Source: an uncultured Candidatus Saccharibacteria bacterium
Lineage (GTDB): Bacteria > Patescibacteriota > Saccharimonadia > Saccharimonadales > JAGQNJ01
Reading direction: 5' to 3'
DNA length: 60,420 nt
NCBI GenBank assembly: GCA_964583075.1
Contig: CAZOUW010000004.1
Coordinates: forward strand, 1-60,420
In this document: piece after piece, positions 35,175 to 45,340 of the stretch
Numbering within the stretch: position 1 is the stretch's first letter
Layout of the letters: each line of letters opens with the position of its first letter
Notes under the pieces: model-generated
What the model saw: only the letters and a program-made list of their open reading frames with translations
Told to the model about the DNA's origin: nothing
Databases searched by the model: none
Made by a program: the position numbers and the translations under genes

Positions 35175-37229
35175 CTACTTGTATAGCACACCGTAGTGCG
35201 TAGTATCGCCACTCGGCATATACTGCTTGATATTATCGATTGTTGCAGTCGGAAACTTGCCACTCAATGCACTCGGTATCGATGTGGCTTGATTATGTGC
35301 CGCCGACAACGCTGATGTTGGTGTCCCGTTGTTATTTACCCAAGACGTGCCTGATTTACTACCTGCCTCAAGGTTACTTATACTTACTGGTGAACCGGCC
35401 AAGAAACTTGACCACGCTGACGCGCTGGTATAATTACCGTTCTTCTGAGTGGCAACTATAATATTACTGCCATAATTGACGTATACATTATCATCTAAGA
35501 ATGTTTGCGGTAACAACGAAGTTGCTCCGTGAATTTCTGTATTTATTGCTGATACGGCCGTACCACTGGCCTGTGTAAAGCATAGAGGTGCAGGGGTACA
35601 ACCATATGCCCTGGTTGCTGTACCAGTTTTAACAACTACGTTGTTTACCATTAGGTCCACCTTAACTACCCAGTCGAGGGTCGCCGGTATTGGAGACCGT
35701 ACATCCCAGTCACTCGGTCCGTATATTAACGTACAGCCACCATTGGGGGTTGAGCAGCCAGGAGTACCCCGTTTATCAACATAGAAGGCTAGCGGATCAC
35801 TGTCACCAACCAGAGTATTATTAACTAACTTTACTCCAGATGAGCCAGCAATCTCTACTGCGTTTACGCCGCTTGTAGAGTCAATAAAGTTATTTACCAT
35901 AAGTAAATCATCGGATATTTCAAAAAATATACTTGCACCAGTTGCACCCGTAATGGTGTTGTTGGCAACATCAACGTCAAAGTTACTTTGGTCAAACCAT
36001 AGAGCAACGCTATTTATATTTGAGAACTCGCTATTGAGTACTTTAGTGTACCGAGTACGGCTTGTCTTAAGTGCGCCGGATTGAGGGCTAGATTTATACT
36101 CGCCGTCAAGATTAAGGTTAGTAATCTTAACTGAATCCATAGTGAAGTTATCAGTCTGGTTAGTATTCACGCCCATCCAACCAGAGCCACTAATGGTCAC
36201 GTTTTTAAGTGTGACGCCAGTATTTAGGTTCGAGCCGCCATTACCTGTCGCCTTTAGGGCCATCTCTGCTGAATCAAGGATTTCTACGTTACTAATTGTT
36301 GAGTTGTCGGAAGTTGCTTCCATCCGAATAACACCGAAACGAGCGGATGGGTCTGAGTAACGCTGAATACTTAAGCCCTCAATTCTGACATTAGCTGCAG
36401 AAATCTGAAAGAGCTGATCATAGTTTGAAACCTCAACATTACCCTTATTAACGTCGTTGGCTGTCATGTAGAGTTTATTACCGGAAGCATCAACCCAAAA
36501 CTTTCCGTCAACCACTTCAGCTTGTGAGCTAACCTGTTTAAGTCGCTTACTGCCTACCCACGCTTGATCAGCATTTTTACCAATTGGGTCAGCCGTAGCG
36601 TAATCTCCACTGGTATCAGGTGTCATTTCTGTGTAGTCGGTATATTTCAGCGACCCAGATGTTGTCCAGCTAGTAGCCACACGAGACCCAATAAAGACAG
36701 GTGTTTCACCAGAAGCGGCATAAATATTAAGCTTCTTGGTTACCTTTGCAAGGTTACCGCCACCACTTAAGCCACCCTGTCTGTACGTTCCACCCTTGAC
36801 TACAATTGAGTCACCGGCTGCAGATGCACTGATTGCCTTAGCCAAAGTCGCGAACGGAGCACTGGCAGTACCGGCAGCTGAATCAGAACCAGTATCATCA
36901 ACATAGCGAATAGTACCCGTTAAGTCACTAATATTATACTGGATCGGCAAATGCGCACCAGGCGAACCAGAACCACCTGTAGCTGCTGTACAAAACTGAA
37001 TAGCATTGCCACCAGATGCATTGCTATCACTGATATTTTGGACGCAATCACCGCCCGATTGCGGTTTGACCCCTATTGAAAAAGTCGCTGCATTCGACAC
37101 AAATAACAGGCTTACTCCAATAAGTGCAACAACAGCTACACTGTATACTCGAATGTTCTTTGTATTTGACAGTTTTACCGCAACAACACCTGCATATTTA
37201 CCGATAGCAGACTTTATCGATTGCCCCAT
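35175..37229 (-). CDS. Secreted right-handed parallel beta-helix (pectate-lyase-fold) protein
   Basis: The 684-aa ORF has an N-terminal signal anchor and repeated N/G/S-rich beta-helix turns (NVTISGSGWMGVN, NNTITGATGASIF and similar). Confidence 0.65.
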   Translation of the reverse strand: MGQSIKSAIGKYAGVVAVKLSNTKNIRVYSVAVVALIGVSLLFVSNAATFSIGVKPQSGGDCVQNISDSNASGGNAIQFCTAATGGSGSPGAHLPIQYNISDLTGTIRYVDDTGSDSAAGTASAPFATLAKAISASAAGDSIVVKGGTYRQGGLSGGGNLAKVTKKLNIYAASGETPVFIGSRVATSWTTSGSLKYTDYTEMTPDTSGDYATADPIGKNADQAWVGSKRLKQVSSQAEVVDGKFWVDASGNKLYMTANDVNKGNVEVSNYDQLFQISAANVRIEGLSIQRYSDPSARFGVIRMEATSDNSTISNVEILDSAEMALKATGNGGSNLNTGVTLKNVTISGSGWMGVNTNQTDNFTMDSVKITNLNLDGEYKSSPQSGALKTSRTRYTKVLNSEFSNINSVALWFDQSNFDVDVANNTITGATGASIFFEISDDLLMVNNFIDSTSGVNAVEIAGSSGVKLVNNTLVGDSDPLAFYVDKRGTPGCSTPNGGCTLIYGPSDWDVRSPIPATLDWVVKVDLMVNNVVVKTGTATRAYGCTPAPLCFTQASGTAVSAINTEIHGATSLLPQTFLDDNVYVNYGSNIIVATQKNGNYTSASAWSSFLAGSPVSISNLEAGSKSGTSWVNNNGTPTSALSAAHNQATSIPSALSGKFPTATIDNIKQYMPSGDTTHYGVLYK

Positions 37230-37589: not shown

Positions 37590-38096
37590 TTAACGCTTTT
37601 TGGCTTGGGTATATGCTTCGTGAACGGTCGAATATTCAAACAGCTCATTTTCACTAAACCAATGAGCAATCTCTTCTTTTGCCTCTTTTGGATCACCGGA
37701 AGCATGTATAACATTTGGCACGCCAATACCACGCTCATTTGCATGTCCAAAACCCATATGCGCATAATCACCGCGGATGGTACCTGGTAAAGCTTTTTGT
37801 GGTTCGGTCTCACCAACCATCTTACGAACCAATGATACGGCGCTTAGGCCTTCAAGGACCATCGCTATCACTGGCCCTTCTTGCATCATAGCAAGAGTAA
37901 CCTCAAACGCTTCCTTGCCGCGTCTTGAAACCATTTTACTAATGCTTTCATAGTGATGGTAAAACTGGTCATAATCTGGCTTGAGCATTTTTGTGCCAAC
38001 AATCTTAAGACCGGCCTTTTCAAAACGCGTCACAATCTCACCCACTATTCCGCGCTTCACAGCATCAGGCTTCAAAATAATTAACGTTCGTTCCAT
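37590..38096 (-). CDS. ndk: Nucleoside diphosphate kinase
   Basis: The start is taken at MERTLIILKPDAVKRGIVGEI. The catalytic His lies in NVIHASG. The longer ORF-track start is probably spurious. Confidence 0.85.
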   Translation of the reverse strand: MERTLIILKPDAVKRGIVGEIVTRFEKAGLKIVGTKMLKPDYDQFYHHYESISKMVSRRGKEAFEVTLAMMQEGPVIAMVLEGLSAVSLVRKMVGETEPQKALPGTIRGDYAHMGFGHANERGIGVPNVIHASGDPKEAKEEIAHWFSENELFEYSTVHEAYTQAKKR

Positions 38097-38172
38097 TAAC
38101 TTCCTTTCGTGTTTTATTTTGAATATTGTAACAAATATAGCCCCTGATAACCATCGCATTGTGTCGTACAAT

Positions 38173-39093
38173 ATGTTTATGAAGTTTGCACGCGCTAAGG
38201 TCGAGTTTTTGGAATACTTAGAGATTGAGCAAGGCCGTTCTCAAAAAACCATCAACAACTATGACCATTACCTCACCAGACTGGAAGATTACGGGGGCGA
38301 TATAGCCGTTGTTGATATTGACCAAGAGTTTGTACGTAAGTGGCGTTTATGGCTCAACCGCCTGGGCACCAATGTTAGCGACGAGCTGCAAAAAAACACT
38401 CTTAACTATCACCTCATTGCCCTGCGTAGCTTTTTGAAATGGTGTGCCAAGCGTGATATCACGGCCTTGCCAGCTGATAAAATTGAGCTAGCAAAAACTA
38501 GCCGTAAACAAGTCACATTCCTCTCAAACGAGGAATTGAATAATTTATTTGCTCAACCGAATACTAGTATATTACAGGGGTTGCGAGACCGAGCCATTCT
38601 TGAATTACTTTTTAGTAGCGGGTTGCGTGTCTCAGAGCTTACCGGCCTAAACAAAGAACACATAAATCTTAAAAAACGAGAATTCACCGTTCGCGGCAAG
38701 GGCCAGAAGGACCGACCAATCTTTATTAGTGAGCCGTCCGCCGAGTGGCTCCAAAAATACATCGATGAACGTAATGATACAGTACCTGCCCTATTTATTC
38801 GGCATAGTAAGAAAAAACAAGCAGAAGATAGATCTGGTAATTTTCAGCGCTTAACACCAAGGAGTGTCCAGCGCATGGTAGCCCGCTATGCCCTGCTTGC
38901 TGGCATCACTAAACATGTATCTCCACACACACTCAGACATAGTTTTGCTACAGACCTGCTTATGAATGGTGCCGATCTAAGGAGTGTACAGGTACTGCTT
39001 GGACACAGCAACATTGCAACAACACAAATTTATACTCACGTCACCGACCCTCACCTTAAAAAGGTTCATGAGCAATTTCATAGCAACAAGTGA
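38173..39093 (+). CDS. Tyrosine recombinase, XerC/XerD-like
   Basis: The start is taken at MFMKFARAK. It has an N-terminal SAM-like domain and the catalytic residues in GLRVSEL, HTLRHSFAT and LLGHSNIATTQIYTH. Confidence 0.85.
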   Translation: MFMKFARAKVEFLEYLEIEQGRSQKTINNYDHYLTRLEDYGGDIAVVDIDQEFVRKWRLWLNRLGTNVSDELQKNTLNYHLIALRSFLKWCAKRDITALPADKIELAKTSRKQVTFLSNEELNNLFAQPNTSILQGLRDRAILELLFSSGLRVSELTGLNKEHINLKKREFTVRGKGQKDRPIFISEPSAEWLQKYIDERNDTVPALFIRHSKKKQAEDRSGNFQRLTPRSVQRMVARYALLAGITKHVSPHTLRHSFATDLLMNGADLRSVQVLLGHSNIATTQIYTHVTDPHLKKVHEQFHSNK

Positions 39094-39099
39094 TCTAGT

Positions 39100-39549
39100 T
39101 TAGTGCCACTGGCCAGTACAAAGGGCATTACCTTCTGTACCATAAGGTATATTTGCAACGTAGTGGTTAGAGACTTCGTCAGGGTATCCATTATTGAAGT
39201 GAATCGTCAGATATACCAAGTATCGGCGACACTCAGCCGGCGCATCTATTGGTGTTGGGTAAGTTGGGAACGTGTGGACAATATACTCACCTGGCAAACA
39301 TGCTTGGTTCTGGACTACCTGGCCATCTCCGAAATCCCAAGTACAGCCATCAACAATACTCGGATCATTTGTGGACCTGTTATACATCCTACGCCCCCAC
39401 TCGTATGGACGATAGGTAGGCGTTGTACTGCCGTTGTTGCCACTACCAGAACCACTGCCGGAGGTCGTATTGCCACCGATTGCCGAATTTCCTGACCCAT
39501 TAGGACCGCTGGTTCCAGGACCACTCGGATTTGGTGTCGTGGTAGGTGA
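39100..39549 (-). CDS. Gly/Ser/Thr/Asn-rich linker plus PKD-like domain, in frame with the upstream PilX-like ORF across a UGA
   Basis: The 162 nt after the TGA (39550-39552) contain no stop and no ATG/GTG/TTG. The first Met is at 39387 and has no RBS. The WDFGDG motif is in DGCTWDFGDGQVV. Confidence 0.55.
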   Translation of the reverse strand, partial: SPTTTPNPSGPGTSGPNGSGNSAIGGNTTSGSGSGSGNNGSTTPTYRPYEWGRRMYNRSTNDPSIVDGCTWDFGDGQVVQNQACLPGEYIVHTFPTYPTPIDAPAECRRYLVYLTIHFNNGYPDEVSNHYVANIPYGTEGNALCTGQWH

Positions 39550-40638
39550 TCAAGTTGGGGTCATATCAGTTGGAGTTATAAGATTGCCTGCAGTACACAA
39601 GTCCTCATATTGTGCATCTGTCACCTTGAACTGCTTGCATATGGTATTTGTAGCCTCGATACCAGTAAGCGGTAACATTTCACCTAGTTTAGACGGAACT
39701 ATATCACTTTCATAAGGTACGCGTACTTGAACACGGCGCAGGACATCTTCTGCTTTACCGGTGACATCAACGATTGCCTGTGCGCCTTCTATGTGAAGAT
39801 TATTGGCAACACTATCATAGGCATTAATCTGGAATGCTATCGGTTTATACAAAGCTTTTATAGCCACAAAATACGTATTGCTTGTACCGTCTGTAGTTAC
39901 CTCTACATTACAGTTGTAAGGGTCATCTGGATGGCTCGTACTGCAGTTACCGGATACGATGCCACCAGATGAGTCACTGAGGCTAGCCGTGCCAGAACCA
40001 CCTTCGCTCGGATACATAAAGAAGGTCCTCGTTTGGTCTGCGATCGAGTCCTGATTAAAGCTGCCTGGCATTACAGTTACGCGTGGCAAGCCAGTTTTCA
40101 AAGTGCCGGGATCTTTAGGGAAAGTTGTTGAACCAGGAGCCTCAAACTGGTCTGTTCCACCTACCGCATCAACAGTGTTCTGCCACGAAAATCGCAGACT
40201 ACTGATATTTCCTGTATTTGAGTGAATCGCCATGATGTATGTGCCTGTGTTTGGGTTAAGAACATCGTATTTGAGTTCACCAGGGTCCACGTCTATTAAA
40301 ACGCAGCTATAAGAGACATTCTGAATGCCAGAAGATGAAGATACTGAATTATTGTAATCAATACTTGGACTTGCATTCCCGAGTGCTGTCTGATAGCCAT
40401 CACAATCAGTAATATCACTATTGATTGCTCCTTGCTTAATGGCATTTATGGCATCTTGTATGCCAGTCTCAGCTGCGTAGAAGGCTTGTGTGCTCAGTTG
40501 CCTGTCTAGGCTTTGACGTTGCTCACGACGCACCACTAAAGTAAAGCTAGTAATAACCAGCGTGATAATAATCATGATTACTAGCGTGGTAGTAATGGCA
40601 ACTAGGCCGTCCTGGTTCCCTCTTAGTGTAGTTCTCAT
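39550..40638 (-). CDS. PilX-like type IV pilus minor component (hydrophobic N-terminal helix, no cleavable prepilin motif)
   Basis: The 362-aa ORF starts MRTTLRGNQDGLVAITTTLVIMIIITLVITSF...AFYAAETGIQDA, which is typical of PilX_N. Confidence 0.7.
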   Translation of the reverse strand: MRTTLRGNQDGLVAITTTLVIMIIITLVITSFTLVVRREQRQSLDRQLSTQAFYAAETGIQDAINAIKQGAINSDITDCDGYQTALGNASPSIDYNNSVSSSSGIQNVSYSCVLIDVDPGELKYDVLNPNTGTYIMAIHSNTGNISSLRFSWQNTVDAVGGTDQFEAPGSTTFPKDPGTLKTGLPRVTVMPGSFNQDSIADQTRTFFMYPSEGGSGTASLSDSSGGIVSGNCSTSHPDDPYNCNVEVTTDGTSNTYFVAIKALYKPIAFQINAYDSVANNLHIEGAQAIVDVTGKAEDVLRRVQVRVPYESDIVPSKLGEMLPLTGIEATNTICKQFKVTDAQYEDLCTAGNLITPTDMTPT

Positions 40639-40670: not shown

Positions 40671-41285
40671 TTACCTAATCCTAGCACTAACAGACGTTTT
40701 ATAACTGGTATATGCACAGAACTGACCGCCAGCAAGCTGACTCAAGCAACCGTCCTGCGTACCATTAAAGGAAGTTATTTCCCCGTAACCAGCACGGACA
40801 GTAACTTCATAGACCCCTGGTGCAGCACCCGGGCCAACATTAAGCTCAAAAAGCCGCATTCCATCAGACAACATGCTCTCTCCACCTGGCGGCACGGAAC
40901 CTGTTAACGGAGGAACATTTGTGCCACACGCCGCAGGATCACTAAGCGTATCACGTATCAGCGCATGGTTATAACCCGCGACTCCCACTTGCTGAACTGT
41001 TTGATAAGTGAACCGCTGTAGCCCTATACATATATAGCTTTGGCTAGCCGGACCAGATGGCCCAATTAGGTTACCCCCCTGGAGCTGGATTGGACGAGAG
41101 ATAGAATCTACAATATTTCTTGTTGCCTGCTGTGTTTTGGCGGTAATATTACCTTTGTAGTAAAGTCGCCCAACCTGTACGAGTACAAAGCTAGCAGATA
41201 CTAAAACCGTAGTTAATATAGTAGTTGCTATCAGTAACTCAACTATAGTGAAGCCTTTGTTTGAAGTTCGTATTTTCATATTCAT
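40671..41285 (-). CDS. Minor pilin (prepilin-type N-terminal cleavage/methylation domain)
   Basis: The N-terminus is NKG|FTIVELLIATTIL. Confidence 0.8.
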   Translation of the reverse strand: MNMKIRTSNKGFTIVELLIATTILTTVLVSASFVLVQVGRLYYKGNITAKTQQATRNIVDSISRPIQLQGGNLIGPSGPASQSYICIGLQRFTYQTVQQVGVAGYNHALIRDTLSDPAACGTNVPPLTGSVPPGGESMLSDGMRLFELNVGPGAAPGVYEVTVRAGYGEITSFNGTQDGCLSQLAGGQFCAYTSYKTSVSARIR

Positions 41286-41845
41286 AGATCCGGTACCGTT
41301 ACCTTATATGCCAGGCTCAATACCTGCCTTTCACCACCACCAGCTCTATCCCAGCCTACATCAACCTGATAGCTAACAGATCTAATGATTACACCTGAGT
41401 GAGTTACGGCCACATATTCTGGCCTAATAATTGCAGTGTACCTATCGCTAGTGCAATCACCCGCAGGAGAAGCAGCATTAGTTTTTACGACCAAACCTGC
41501 AGAGTTAAAACAAAAAGCATCAGCAGCTTCTTGGGGGGAAAACGTCTTTTTATTATCTAGGCCTGTGTCCAAACCATTATTCTGAACAATAATGCCTCTG
41601 TTTTCGAGTGCCTCAAATGACTCGGCCCTGGCAGATAAGGCATGGAGCATTTCAACTTGAGATTCTGCAATTTTTAGGGCCTCACCCCTCTCCTGGGATA
41701 CTCGTATACCGTTAAGGCTGCGGGTTGAAATACTATAGCCCGTCACCAAAACAAGCGAAAGAACGCTCATGGCTATCAAAACCTCTATTATTGTGTCGCC
41801 ACGTTGTGATCGCTTTTTAGTTACGCGCATGGACTGCCGTCCCAT
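41282..41845 (-). CDS. Minor pilin-like protein with an atypical +1 residue
   Basis: The N-terminus is QRG|DTIIEVLIAMSVLSL. It has Asp where Phe or Met is usual, and Glu5 is conserved. Confidence 0.65.
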   Translation of the reverse strand: MGRQSMRVTKKRSQRGDTIIEVLIAMSVLSLVLVTGYSISTRSLNGIRVSQERGEALKIAESQVEMLHALSARAESFEALENRGIIVQNNGLDTGLDNKKTFSPQEAADAFCFNSAGLVVKTNAASPAGDCTSDRYTAIIRPEYVAVTHSGVIIRSVSYQVDVGWDRAGGGERQVLSLAYKVTVPDL

Positions 41846-42672
41846 TCTGTCTTGCTCATAATCTTAACCGTGTTACTCAGTGGTTTTGCGCCGTCGCCAA
41901 TAATAATAGTGGCGTATTGCTCCGACACTGCACTCCGTAAACATAAGGTAACTCCAGTGGATGGGTTTGGTGTCGATAAAACAGTAAATATGTCGTCGTA
42001 TGTTCCGCCCGCAGATCTAGTAAATACATCATCTGCCTCACTCAGGTTACCACTAATCGTACGCATTTCTACTTGTGATGCCCCCGATGGCAGACCACTG
42101 GCAACAGCAGACGTAGGTGTACCAAATGTTTGCAAAAACGCTACACCGCCAGCAGTCGGATTAACGACTTTCGTTATATATAGACCAAAAGCTGTATCGT
42201 AAGTTTCAGCTGGTAATACTGTTATGTCTGCAAAACGAGGCCCTGAATCATCCAGACTATTTGCTGGTTCACCTGATAGATCTTTGGTGCTCCCCCAAAT
42301 TGTATGAATGGCTAGATTATCGCAAGCCTCTCCTCCAATAGTATTACAGCCGGCGCTAGAAGGCCCGAATTGAATTGCCCTACCCAGAAATACACAGTCA
42401 GAGTTAGTACCTTGTACATTTGACCCGGTGGTTAGCGTTGTGCCATTACAAGTAATATTCTGAGTATTTGGATAATAGCCGCTTGCTACCTGATTAGAAA
42501 CGTCTCTGATTTTTAAGTCTAGTTCAGTAACAGCTTGGCTGAACTGTGCTTTGGGGATACGTGTACTAAACAAGGCCACAGCCCCTCCAACAATAGCCAC
42601 GCTTATGGTCAAGAATATTATGACTTCTATTATAGTAAACCCGCCCGCATGACGGCGAAGGCCGCGAATCAT
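41821..42672 (-). CDS. Minor pilin (prepilin-type N-terminus)
   Basis: The N-terminus is RHAG|GFTIIEVIIFLTISVAIV. I prefer the start at MIRGL (42672). Confidence 0.75.
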   Translation of the reverse strand: MIRGLRRHAGGFTIIEVIIFLTISVAIVGGAVALFSTRIPKAQFSQAVTELDLKIRDVSNQVASGYYPNTQNITCNGTTLTTGSNVQGTNSDCVFLGRAIQFGPSSAGCNTIGGEACDNLAIHTIWGSTKDLSGEPANSLDDSGPRFADITVLPAETYDTAFGLYITKVVNPTAGGVAFLQTFGTPTSAVASGLPSGASQVEMRTISGNLSEADDVFTRSAGGTYDDIFTVLSTPNPSTGVTLCLRSAVSEQYATIIIGDGAKPLSNTVKIMSKTEWDGSPCA

Positions 42673-42699
42673 AGGCAAATTATAGCACAAGCGTATTAG

Positions 42700-43494
42700 C
42701 TAAAGGTAGAGAAAACTATGCAAATACCAATTAATAACAGGTCCACCAAACAAAACAACCACTACCGTTGCAATAATTAAGAGCGGTCCGAACGGCAATT
42801 TGGTTTTTACTTTCACTTTACCCCTAACCAAACTAGGCAGTACATACAAGGTACCAATAAGTGAGGCTAGAAATATTATTAAAAATACCTCCGCTATGCC
42901 TCCGGCTAACAACCCTAGTGGCAATGCAAGTTTCACGTCACCACCGCCTATCCATTTACCCTTAGATACCGTGAACAAAGTCCAGAATATAGCAAAGAAT
43001 GTGATACCGCTAACAAACGATTGAACCAAACCAACTACTCCATCGCTACTTGCTGCTCTCAAGATAGTAAAAACTACGGCAAACACTGTAAGTACAGCCA
43101 CCAAACTATTTGGCAACAACATCCACTTAAGATCATACACAAGTAAAGCAACGAGTATTATCAAACACAGTAGCCACACAACAAGCGCAGCCACTCCAGC
43201 AACCGTCATAAGCGTATATGGCCAAAATAGATATGAACATACGAATAATACCGTTGTCAGCAACTCTATGGCGGGGTATTGGGCAGATATTGGCTTTTTG
43301 CAGTAGCGGCATTTACCGCCCAGTGTTAGCCAACTGACGACCGGAATAAGGTCTTTAGCTGCTAAAACATGCTTACAGTGAGGGCAAACGGAGCGTTCAC
43401 TAACCCAATTACGTTTGGTTTTAAGCCGCCATACCAAGGCATTTATAAAACTACCGAGGGCAAGCCCAAATATTACAAGAATAAGCACAATCAT
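42700..43494 (-). CDS. pilD: Prepilin peptidase (A24 family)
   Basis: It has the zinc-finger motif CPHCKH...CRYCKK, a polytopic membrane body and GGGDVKL. Confidence 0.9.
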   Translation of the reverse strand: MIVLILVIFGLALGSFINALVWRLKTKRNWVSERSVCPHCKHVLAAKDLIPVVSWLTLGGKCRYCKKPISAQYPAIELLTTVLFVCSYLFWPYTLMTVAGVAALVVWLLCLIILVALLVYDLKWMLLPNSLVAVLTVFAVVFTILRAASSDGVVGLVQSFVSGITFFAIFWTLFTVSKGKWIGGGDVKLALPLGLLAGGIAEVFLIIFLASLIGTLYVLPSLVRGKVKVKTKLPFGPLLIIATVVVVLFGGPVINWYLHSFLYL

Positions 43495-43521
43495 TTATTT
43501 AATAATACTTGTTTGGCCTCA

Positions 43522-43555
43522 AATAAAAAAGAGCGGATAAATTCCGCTCTTTTTA
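43522..43555 (-). terminator. Intrinsic terminator or attenuator after pilA
   Basis: AGAGCGGA-ATTTA-TCCGCTCT followed by TTTTTTATTT on the minus strand. Confidence 0.75.
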
Positions 43556-43570
43556 CAGAGTTACTGTTTA

Positions 43571-44014
43571 TTAGCTACCTATACATCGTGGTGCATCTGC
43601 ACCTGTTGTTTCTACCTGATAAGAGACAGTGAAAGCTCGGCCACCTCCACCCGCTACAGGTGAAGCACCATTTGCATCACACCTAGTACCAGTTTGGATA
43701 TCATAATTACTGATAGAAGCTGTTCCCTCAGCAGTTAGTTGCTGTAATTTGCTTGAATCAAGATATGTATTCAACGATGCCGCTGCTGGATCTTGACAAG
43801 ATGCCATCTGACCATTGTTATTATTTAGACACTCATTAATTGCCGCAGAAACGAGTGACGCGTCATTTGTTCGCTGCGTGTTACGTGAATTACGTTGTAG
43901 TGCCGGAACTGCCAAGAACACAATCAAGATGATCAAACCTGCAATTGCAAGCACAATCAAGACTTCGATTATAGTGAAGCCTTCTTGTCTTTTAGTTTTA
44001 TATTTTTGTAACAT
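43571..44014 (-). CDS. pilA: Major type IV pilin
   Basis: The N-terminus is RQEG|FTIIEVLIVLAIAGLIILIVFLAVPALQRNSRN. The gene has its own promoter, a strong RBS (GGGGGA) and its own terminator. Confidence 0.85.
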   Translation of the reverse strand: MLQKYKTKRQEGFTIIEVLIVLAIAGLIILIVFLAVPALQRNSRNTQRTNDASLVSAAINECLNNNNGQMASCQDPAAASLNTYLDSSKLQQLTAEGTASISNYDIQTGTRCDANGASPVAGGGGRAFTVSYQVETTGADAPRCIGS

Positions 44015-44070
44015 ACCTTGTTTCCCCCTTTAAGGTGTTTTATTAAAAGCAGTATGTGCTTATGGTTAAA

Positions 44071-44099
44071 ATACTATGCCTGTTGAAGATAAAATGCAA
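44071..44099 (-). promoter_or_regulatory. Candidate pilA promoter
   Basis: On the minus strand: TTGCAT (44099-44094), 17 nt, then TAGTAT (44076-44071). Confidence 0.45.
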
Positions 44100-44116
44100 G
44101 TACTTTTACACAGGTA

Positions 44117-45340
44117 TTAGATAATGCTGTTTGTCTGATTTACAAGACCGTAAATAGGCAGTAGTACTGCGGCAACAATTGTAAAAGCCACTATGCCCAA
44201 TAAGACCATCAGCACAGGCTCAATAATGGTTGAGATAGTTTTGACCTGGTTGTCTACCTCTTTTTCATAATAGTCAGCTGTTTTCTCTAGCATATCTTCA
44301 AGCGAACCTGATTCTTCACCAATGTGAATCATATCCGGGACTAGTTGCGTAAAGTTTGGGTCACCTTTTAGTGATTCTGATAGCGATTTACCCCCTTTAA
44401 CTTTCTCTATAGCCTTTCTTATTGAACGCTCAATGTGCACGTTATTGACTGCTCTGGCCAGGATTTCTAATACTTGTATTAAAGGTACGCCACTGGCTAC
44501 CAATGTTGCGCCCGTACGGGCAAAGCGTGCCATATACACTTTTGTGAACAGCGGACCAAACAGCGGTGCTTTCATTTTTGCTTTATCAATCGCCTCTTTG
44601 CCACCAATAGACTTAACCCACCTATTTCCAAAAAATATGCTAAGACCCAGTAATATCAAAGCAACCCACCAATAATCTATTACAAAGTGTGAAACTGCCA
44701 ATAAAATTTTAGTAATAATGGGCAGGTTAGCCCCAGGGAGATCTTTATATATCTGCTCTACTTGGGGCAGGACAGTAACGATCATGAAACCAACCACGGC
44801 AATCATCACGACAATCACAACCGCCGGGTATACCATAGCACCGCGGATTTTGCTCATAATCTCTGCGTCTTTTTCTTGCTGATTTGCTAACCGCTCTAAA
44901 GCTTTATCGAGTGTACCTGATGCCTCACCGGCCGCAACTAGGTTGACGAAAACTTCATTAAATACCTTAGGGTGCTTGGCTAAAGCCTGAGAAAACGAGT
45001 TTCCGGCCTCTACATCTGTAATAATATTGCTTATAATTACCTGTAGCGCTTTATTTTGAGTTTGGCCTTGAACATTGCGCAAAGACTGAACAATGGGCAA
45101 ACCAGCATTGATCAGAGTTGAGAGCTGGCGAGAGAACAGAACTTTATCTTTTGTGGTGATACGGTTTGTGAATCTACTGATTAAACCACTGTTGTCACCA
45201 TCAACCGGAGTAACATCAACCACTATAAGCCCTTGTTGCTTAACGACGTTTACAACAGATTGTATGTTGGTGCCTTGAATTTGTGCAGTTATCTTTTTGC
45301 CGGTTGCAGGGTCACGTGCCTCATACTTAAATGATTGCAT
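44117..45340 (-). CDS. pilC: Type IV pilus platform protein (GspF/PilC family)
   Basis: The 407-aa ORF has a duplicated T2SS-F domain and 3 TM segments. Confidence 0.9.
   Translation of the reverse strand: MQSFKYEARDPATGKKITAQIQGTNIQSVVNVVKQQGLIVVDVTPVDGDNSGLISRFTNRITTKDKVLFSRQLSTLINAGLPIVQSLRNVQGQTQNKALQVIISNIITDVEAGNSFSQALAKHPKVFNEVFVNLVAAGEASGTLDKALERLANQQEKDAEIMSKIRGAMVYPAVVIVVMIAVVGFMIVTVLPQVEQIYKDLPGANLPIITKILLAVSHFVIDYWWVALILLGLSIFFGNRWVKSIGGKEAIDKAKMKAPLFGPLFTKVYMARFARTGATLVASGVPLIQVLEILARAVNNVHIERSIRKAIEKVKGGKSLSESLKGDPNFTQLVPDMIHIGEESGSLEDMLEKTADYYEKEVDNQVKTISTIIEPVLMVLLGIVAFTIVAAVLLPIYGLVNQTNSII

Follow-up and report, generated by a model that had tools for sequence, protein, structure and literature searches.

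What does an in-frame TGA mean when it stands in the middle of a pilin gene and the frame behind it stays open? The question arises in a 60,420-nt stretch of DNA from an uncultured Candidatus Saccharibacteria bacterium (assembly GCA_964583075.1, contig CAZOUW010000004.1; 44% G+C), hereafter the window. On its minus strand, an open reading frame (ORF) at 39550..40638 begins with an ATG at 40638 and encodes a PilX-like minor pilin of 362 amino acids (aa), which stops at a TGA at 39550-39552. Past this TGA the frame is open for another 149 codons, up to a TAA at 39100-39102. An earlier note on this DNA had offered three explanations, namely programmed readthrough as its headline option, a recent nonsense mutation or phase-variable OFF state, and a sequencing or consensus error. 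We sought to decide between these and further explanations by comparing the locus with its relatives, by modelling the two parts of the protein and by examining the code, the context and the evolution of the interrupted frame. On balance, we consider it probable that the TGA is a genuine nonsense allele of recent date, derived from GGA and fixed within a single strain group, which truncates a bimodular PilX-like pilin at the boundary between its modules.

A single reading frame divided by TGA

Retranslation confirmed the basic observation of the earlier note that the two ORFs split by the TGA lie in one frame. The interval 39100..40638 spans 1539 nt, is divisible by 3 and contains a lone internal stop. 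Its conceptual translation reads ...TPTDMTPT*SPTTTPNPSGPG...WDFGDG...CTGQWH*, which reproduces the distal sequence as first given, WDFGDG included. A scan of the ORFs likewise bore out that there is no in-frame ATG, GTG or TTG between the TGA and the first Met codon, an ATG at 39385-39387 from which a 95-aa ORF can be called.

If the two parts had once formed a single gene, then relatives should encode them without interruption. The closest database homologues are indeed uninterrupted, with 505-570 aa, and the ~170 residues by which the long homologues exceed the 362-aa product align with the distal frame of the window. The nearest two (P0002 and P0003) show 63% and 61% identity and have lengths of 534 and 535 aa; P0004-P0008 and P0010-P0011 follow with 40-45% identity and 522-551 aa. 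On the contig that carries P0003 (L086), the gene order is that of the window, and one 535-aa ORF lies between the third minor pilin and a convergent xerC-like gene. A profile of the C-terminal module (C-module), run against 1.84 billion representative proteins, retrieved ~30 proteins, 500-570 aa long, that end in this module, and also picked up giant multi-repeat (multi-PKD) proteins via the C-x-W-x-W-G-D-G region. Since a homologue of the C-module is present in ~30 uninterrupted proteins of this size, it is not by chance that the distal frame is open. The gap to the stop of the convergent xerC-like gene measures 6 nt in the window, 5 nt in L086 and 6 nt in L087, a contig described below. The position of the TAA at 39100, 6 nt from the xerC stop, therefore preserves the end of the ancestral gene. 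Both modules are carried by one polypeptide in L085, L086 and L087, but not in the window, where the TGA stands between them. A fused ORF in relatives, which the earlier note had envisaged, was thus found uninterrupted in L087 (512 aa) and L086 (535 aa), and these comparisons indicate that the fused two-module architecture is ancestral.

Origin of the TGA allele

The change that produced the stop could be read directly from a sister allele. Clustering at 90% identity groups a 512-aa protein (P0260) with the distal 95-aa ORF; it is located on L087 (Logan SRR12486993, 36.7 kb) together with the same operon, an xerC-like gene and ndk. This 512-aa protein is 93% identical to the conceptual fusion of the window. 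At the stop site the window reads CCA ACT TGA TCA and L087 reads CCA ACT GGA TCA, while L085 and L086 have GGT/GGC in the aligned linker. Since the codon is GGA in L087 and GGT/GGC in L085 and L086, the TGA is a derived single G-to-T nonsense mutation of a Gly codon. The T at 39552 is common to the window, L001 (SRR34038741), L002 (ERZ17987536), L003 (ERZ3756521) and L088 (SRR25909819). These five TGA-carrying assemblies come from different runs and each has private variants; the 362-aa product stands on 4 contigs in the protein database.

Neither a repeat tract nor an invertible element was present at the stop site CCA ACT TGA TCA CCT. The sole nearby repeat, an 18-nt-spaced direct repeat at 39468-39494, yields in-frame deletions and not on/off switching. 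Of the paired option in the earlier note, the recent nonsense mutation fits the data, and the phase-variable OFF state drops out, the locus having no repeat tract for such a switch.

The place at which the mutation truncates the protein was compared with naturally short relatives. The 362-aa product ends 27 residues past an invariant Cys-Lys, and 42 natural short forms end 14-49 residues past it (median 25). Since the product ends where natural short forms end, the TGA turns a long form into the common short architecture. A full-length alignment search of GTDB returned, as its best 80 loci, 78 short forms with no trace of the C-module in any frame; identity was at most 39%, and no close relative was among these 80. 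No relative of the distal protein was found in a JGI metagenome scan, a homologue search with the C-module alignment returned the 95-aa cluster only, and exact-protein look-ups of the window's own proteins gave no match. A possible second case of a split gene, the free-standing 162-aa C-module protein P0123, was rejected: on its contig (L084; GCA_030153525.1, JASEKR010005077.1) the coding sequence of the PilX-like gene and of its neighbours jumps among all three frames, and the protein is an artefact of this frameshift-ridden assembly.

Identity to P0002 is 65% in the N-terminal module (N-module) and 31% in the C-module. An abnormal divergence of the window's C-module from P0002 was considered and rejected, other pairs being equally incongruent. 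Among the long forms, P0007 and P0011 show 65% and 32% identity in their N- and C-modules, and P0002 and P0005 show 44% and 63%. The PKD-like C-module and its linker also occur on other Saccharibacterial pilins that have a canonical N-methyl motif (GDTIVEVLIA...; P0209, P0210 and P0245, and L060:3383-4297). The incongruent identities, taken with the presence of the module on other pilins, suggest that the C-module has been gained, lost and shuffled repeatedly, in the manner of a cassette.

Structure of the two modules

The N-module is a PilX-like minor pilin by homology. PilX_N (PF14341) matches the 362-aa product marginally, at residues 14-60 (E=1.2e-5, 25.6 bits against a cut-off of 25.5), and is also precomputed on most of its homologues. 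These number 575 and are mostly from Saccharimonadales, the named ones all being Saccharimonadales or Patescibacteria. An AlphaFold2 model built with 60 homologues had a predicted local distance difference test score (pLDDT) of 84.5, with a long hydrophobic N-terminal helix at residues 10-68 and a beta-rich globular domain at residues 108-308. The fold is complete by about residue 346, and confidence is low in the tail from about residue 320. The model gave no confident match in the PDB, only a weak likeness to lectin and adhesin sandwiches. A check for a class III signal peptide (Gly at -1, Glu at +5) found G11 followed by LVAIT, and hence no Glu at +5; PilX1 and PilX2 of Nanosynbacter lyticus TM7x likewise have no predicted PilD signals (PMC11623550).

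Within the N-module, a segment at 40144-40452 (codons ~63-165) differs from L087 with a synonymous divergence (dS) of 1.33, a non-synonymous divergence (dN) of 0.14 and three indels, in an allele that is otherwise 99% identical. The rest of the PilX-like gene has a dS of 0.29 and a ratio of non-synonymous to synonymous divergence (omega) of 0.03. Running from the helix end into the beginning of the head domain, the segment has the look of a surface patch that is diversifying or has recombined.

The C-module is defined by four conserved Cys and a C-x-W-x-[WF]-G-D-G motif, and the window retains each of the 17 family-invariant columns, among them N, S, C, W, GDG, three further Cys and P-x-G. In the linker that precedes it, the conserved columns of the long-form family are G383, A385 and I387, of which the Gly is invariant and the Ala and Ile nearly so; the motif around them, G-N-S-A-I-G, is predicted to form a short beta strand. 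A tryptic peptide of the distal part is YLVYLTIHFNNGYPDEVSNHYVANIPYGTEGNALCTGQWH. The AlphaFold2 model of the C-module had a pLDDT above 90 over the core and low values in the linker, and its top PDB matches are PKD domains (4l9d, 6aem, 4xed and 1wgo). The best named matches were PrtV PKD1 (4l9d, TM score 0.81 normalised on the target) and Epp PKD1, with a Foldseek E-value of only ~5e-3. By contrast, Pfam PKD_4 scored 14.2 bits against a cut-off of 27 (E=0.046), over the motif region only. The PKD-like domain claimed in the earlier note is therefore upheld at the level of the modelled fold and not at that of the profile: assignment to the PKD-type beta-sandwich is justified on the predicted structure, and membership of the Pfam family is not.

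Selection and recombination in the distal frame

Several observations weigh against a plain nonsense mutation and are gathered here. Compared with L087, the distal region carries 23 synonymous and 2 non-synonymous changes (dS 0.26, omega 0.023, for a divergence that may pre-date the TGA), and within it the 103-codon PKD-like part has 16 synonymous and 0 non-synonymous changes (dS ~0.29). The distal frame of the window shows no decay, having neither stop nor frameshift in 149 codons and retaining 17/17 invariant residues. Such a low omega would also be expected from continued selection, and hence from continued translation, of the distal part. The TGA allele is present in five samples and was not quickly purged. 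Finally, the damaging private variants described below come from contigs with only ~1.7-1.9x coverage and may be errors or transient polymorphisms. The low distal omega is equally explained, however, by a recent mutation together with recombination, and N-module codons 166-362 evolve in the same regime as the distal region (dS 0.29, omega 0.03 against L087). If the distal part has been neutral since the TGA arose, we estimate that the TGA falls within roughly the last tenth of the window branch; this figure is our own, and is based on ~34 neutral non-synonymous changes expected in the module per full branch, against 0 seen. In addition, only intact remnants get noticed, so recent events are over-represented, which blunts the argument from selection.

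The clade that carries the TGA is very young. Outside one block, the window and L001 differ at one site in ~1,330 nt. Inside this block (39130-39307, 178 nt), 15 substitutions separate the window from L001, L002, L003 and L088, and they change 13 codons synonymously and 1 codon from Thr to Ile. On the xerC side the block is bordered by 885 identical bases, and on the opposite side by ~450 bases with one difference. The window agrees with L087 at 12/15 of the sites, and the other TGA contigs carry a third haplotype. We considered the 13:1 ratio of synonymous to non-synonymous changes as a sign of selection after the TGA and rejected it, since the differences are confined to one imported 178-nt block. 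A second recombination block lies at 39757-39823. Both show 8-15% nucleotide divergence, nearly all of it at third codon positions, between otherwise identical strains, and from this pattern, as far as sequence can tell, they were left by homologous recombination with diverged donors.

Private changes in the distal part of the TGA clade were few and of a damaging kind. L002 and L003 have two different 18-nt deletions, each of which removes the conserved G-N-x-A-I-G motif at 39475-39492, and L088 (P0259) has a Gly-to-Cys change in the invariant GDG; private synonymous changes in the distal part of TGA-clade members were not found. These changes are no more than suggestive of relaxed constraint, given the small numbers and the low-coverage contigs. 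An imperfect 9-nt direct repeat, GGAAATTCG / GGCAATACG, with its copies 18 nt apart (39468-39494), brackets the G-N-S-A-I-G motif, and the deletions in L002 and L003 each keep a different copy.

Alternative explanations for the in-frame TGA

In the option that headed the earlier note, a few ribosomes would decode the UGA, with near-cognate tRNA-Trp or another tRNA, and selection would keep both the stop and the distal frame. The intact distal frame, with its low omega and no non-synonymous change in the PKD-like part, is what functional readthrough would predict, and the occurrence of the allele in five assemblies and the location of the stop exactly at the module boundary also fit; UGA is moreover the leakiest stop in studied bacteria. 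A stop kept for readthrough should, however, be conserved among orthologues, and this one is not: the sister strain has GGA, L085 and L086 have GGT/GGC, and all ~30 long homologues are uninterrupted. The context, UGA-UCA, is not a leaky one either, as U after UGA makes for strong termination in E. coli and the same TGA-TC ends the xerC-like gene. No stimulatory structure was found: in the 171 nt around the stop the predicted fold is weaker than in shuffled sequences (z = +1.56), and there was no Rfam hit at the stop. Nor does a terminator-like site follow the TGA. Members of the TGA clade have lost the linker motif or changed the invariant GDG, and the low omega is accounted for by a recent mutation, recombination imports and the bias toward intact remnants. 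None of these tests gave positive support to programmed readthrough, and we regard functional readthrough as unlikely. Its more specific form we consider distinctly unlikely. In this form UGA would be read through at a low, selected rate, the tip subunits would be short with a rare PKD-tipped one among them, and the TGA allele would tune adhesin dosage; if true, a bacterial chromosome would be using a counterpart of the Qbeta A1 strategy. Incidental leakage at the UGA, at a low level, could still occur.

The distal part might also be made alone, by gene fission, as a separate 95-aa protein starting at the ATG at 39385-39387. The earlier note had seen no Shine-Dalgarno sequence before this first Met, and in this it was mistaken: a GGGGG run at 39394-39398, 6 nt before the ATG, is predicted to form an anti-Shine-Dalgarno duplex of -8.4 kcal/mol, in the top 1.6% of window ATGs. 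This site is strong for the genome, well spaced and similar to the AAGGGGGAA site of the major pilin, and the 95-aa ORF is called by gene finders on every TGA contig. The ATG and the GGGGG nevertheless pre-exist in the intact allele of L087, as W-G-R-R-M codons with only synonymous differences at 39391 and 39403, and hence are no adaptation to the stop. In the model of the domain this ATG falls within the first beta strand (model residues 38-43). A protein begun there would lack both a signal peptide and a pilin helix, although the four conserved Cys of the module are a trait characteristic of extracellular domains. Among the homologues, none consists of the C-module on its own, the short hits being contig-end fragments or from the frameshifted assembly. 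The judgement of the earlier note that the distal part is no normal independent gene is thereby sustained. Independent expression may occur, but a functional product is unlikely, and fission as the explanation of the locus is very unlikely. Another possibility is recoding, in which UGA would be translated, either under code 25 or 4, which some other Patescibacteria use, or as selenocysteine. In its favour, other classes of Patescibacteria have reassigned UGA to Gly or to Trp (PMC13092985), and the ancestral residue at the site is Gly. In the window, however, TGA terminates 6 other ORFs of at least 200 aa at orthologous ends. One of these controls is the xerC-like gene, whose TGA-TC stands at the orthologous residue (...FHSNK* against ...FHNK* in L086, both 303 aa). 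No other gene is split by an in-frame TGA in 60 kb, the sole other TGA-joined pair being the xerC-like gene and an antisense ORF, and none of the 6 tRNAs of the window has the UCA anticodon of a UGA-reading suppressor. Among stop-to-stop ORFs of at least 150 codons, TAA closes 26, TAG 16 and TGA 12. The lineages reported as reassigned are JAEDAM01 and a Minisyncoccia family, and Saccharibacteria (Saccharimonadia) are not mentioned in that paper (PMC13092985). For selenocysteine, there was no SECIS-like (selenocysteine insertion sequence) structure and no Rfam hit, and the homologues have Gly and not Cys at the aligned position. The claim in the earlier note that TGA is a genuine stop elsewhere in the window is thus borne out; the locus evidently uses the standard genetic code and not table 4 or 25, and recoding is extremely improbable and effectively refuted within the window. 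An error of sequencing, assembly or consensus, the true codon being sense, has for it only the prior that single-base errors occur in the consensus of metagenome-assembled genomes. The T at 39552 recurs in five assemblies that come from different runs and differ elsewhere, and with the 362-aa product on 4 database contigs as well, the probability of an error is close to nil.

Gene context

The PilX-like gene is the final gene of a type IV pilus operon, the remainder of which lies upstream at 40671..45340 on the minus strand. The order of genes in the window, together with the Pfam labels on L086 and L087, accounts for the components expected of such an operon, that is ATPases, a platform protein, a prepilin peptidase and other pilins. 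The coordinates are collected in Table 1.

Table 1. Positions in the window of the interrupted pilin gene, its parts and the neighbouring genes.
Feature	Position	Strand	Basis
PilX-like minor pilin, N-terminal module (362 aa)	39550..40638	-	ORF; PilX_N; homologues; AlphaFold2 model
In-frame TGA, codon 363	39550..39552	-	GGA (Gly) in L087; one G-to-T change
Low-complexity Gly/Ser/Thr/Pro linker, codons 364-408, 3' of the stop	39415..39549	-	Translation; alignment of long homologues; low pLDDT
Linker motif G-N-S-A-I-G	39475..39492	-	Invariant columns; deletions in L002 and L003; predicted short beta strand
PKD-like beta-sandwich module (predicted), codons 409-512	39103..39414	-	Invariant residues; AlphaFold2 model; PDB matches
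TAA, ancestral stop of the fused gene	39100..39102	-	6 nt from the convergent xerC-like stop, as in orthologues
First in-frame ATG after the TGA (39385-39387) with Shine-Dalgarno-like GGGGG (39394-39398)	39385..39398	-	Fortuitous internal start signal
Putative recombinant block within the distal module	39130..39307	-	15 substitutions against L001/L002/L003/L088; flanking DNA identical
Convergent xerC/xerD-like tyrosine recombinase, TGA-TC end	38182..39093	+	Alignment with L086 orthologue; Pfam Phage_integrase on orthologues
Three minor pilins	40671-41285, 41282-41845, 41821-42690	-	ORFs; N_methyl hits
Prepilin peptidase	42700-43494	-	ORF; Pfam labels on syntenic L086/L087
Major pilin	43571-44014	-	ORF; Pfam labels on syntenic L086/L087
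PilC platform	44117-45340	-	ORF; Pfam labels on syntenic L086/L087

Three features beyond the operon deserve mention. The xerC-like ORF, called mechanically, extends over 37981-39093 on the plus strand, and a start at the TTG at 37981 would overlap ndk. Since the xerC-like orthologues of L086 and L087 have 303-304 aa, the real start of the window gene lies near 38182. Antisense to the distal module, a 130-aa plus-strand ORF at 39103-39495 stands in frame with the xerC-like gene past its TGA, where 133 codons are open. Its translation is rich in Cys, Arg and Trp, and the ORF is probably just coding DNA read on the opposite strand in a frame with few stops. Past ndk and a tRNA-Arg, the minus-strand ORF at 35175-37229 encodes 684 aa with an N-terminal hydrophobic segment and beta-helix/pectate-lyase-like hits (Beta_helix E=1.3e-9, DUF1565); from these hits, the protein may be a secreted polysaccharide-acting enzyme.

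Discussion

The course of events that we propose starts from an ancestral protein with a PilX-like N-module, that is a membrane or pilus-core helix and a beta-rich head, followed by a flexible linker and a disulfide-bonded PKD-like sandwich. By analogy with modular pilins, this sandwich would have served for binding, exposed at the tip of the pilus. A G-to-T change would then have turned GGA, a Gly codon where the linker begins, into TGA in one strain group, and at this codon release factor 2 is expected to terminate translation, probably efficiently. The resulting 362-aa protein would have the complete fold of the N-module and an end point like that of the natural short forms, and it may well be functional, so that the pilus would still assemble, minus the PKD-like module. 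The 447 nt downstream would be a very young and still intact remnant, and any long isoform would come from background misreading of UGA only.

Bimodular type IV pilins are known from Streptococcus sanguinis, where PilB and PilC (PMC8179133) similarly consist of a pilin helix and head followed by an extra C-terminal module and are encoded among the minor pilins of a monoderm-type operon. They differ from the protein described here in that its N-module is of the PilX_N type without the canonical G/FxxxE processing motif, and its C-terminal module is a small PKD-like sandwich and not a vWA or lectin module, cut off in the window by a nonsense codon. Closer in taxonomy are PilX1 and PilX2 of N. 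lyticus TM7x, proposed tip adhesins, of which pilX2 lowers host binding when deleted (PMC11623550). Like the window gene, these are Saccharibacterial, the largest minor pilin of a type IV pilus locus and provided with extra C-terminal domains; they have no predicted PilD signal, and the window protein has no Glu at +5. Their accessory domains are jelly-roll-like and beta-propeller and not PKD-like, the likeness being one of description only, and no interrupted allele was described in that study (PMC11623550). Compared with PKD domains in general (PF00801/PF18911; PrtV PKD1, 4l9d), the C-module shares the beta-sandwich fold and a WxxGDG-type motif. It differs in its score, which is under the Pfam threshold, in its four conserved Cys, in the conserved strand of the preceding linker and in being appended to several kinds of Saccharibacterial pilins.

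The TGA itself invites comparison with two kinds of precedent. In phage Qbeta, readthrough of a UGA extends the minor coat protein to give A1; the stop is conserved and the extension is essential. The window locus resembles this arrangement in that an in-frame UGA separates a structural protein from a C-terminal extension for which a few copies would be of use. The differences are that the stop arose within one strain group, that the sister strain carries a sense codon at the site and that no stimulatory context turned up. With nonsense pseudogenes and domain-loss polymorphisms, the locus shares a single-base stop that arose in the gene for a surface adhesin and varies within a species-level group, and an intact downstream remnant amid mosaic recombination blocks. 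What sets it apart from nonsense pseudogenes is that the stop falls exactly at the module boundary and that the product mimics a natural short architecture and is not a broken protein. In kind, then, the TGA event is ordinary, a routine nonsense polymorphism in a surface-protein gene, and it would be relevant to translational recoding only if readthrough were shown experimentally.

For annotation, the 362-aa and 95-aa calls represent one ancestral gene, and the 95-aa 'hypothetical protein' should be flagged as a remnant. For the evolution of the family, a nonsense allele of this kind means that the locus catches domain loss in the act, as a long PKD-tipped PilX-like pilin passes into the short form that is dominant in Saccharimonadales. 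Since the PKD-like module has been grafted onto several kinds of Saccharibacterial pilin, it is a candidate host-binding determinant of these episymbionts.

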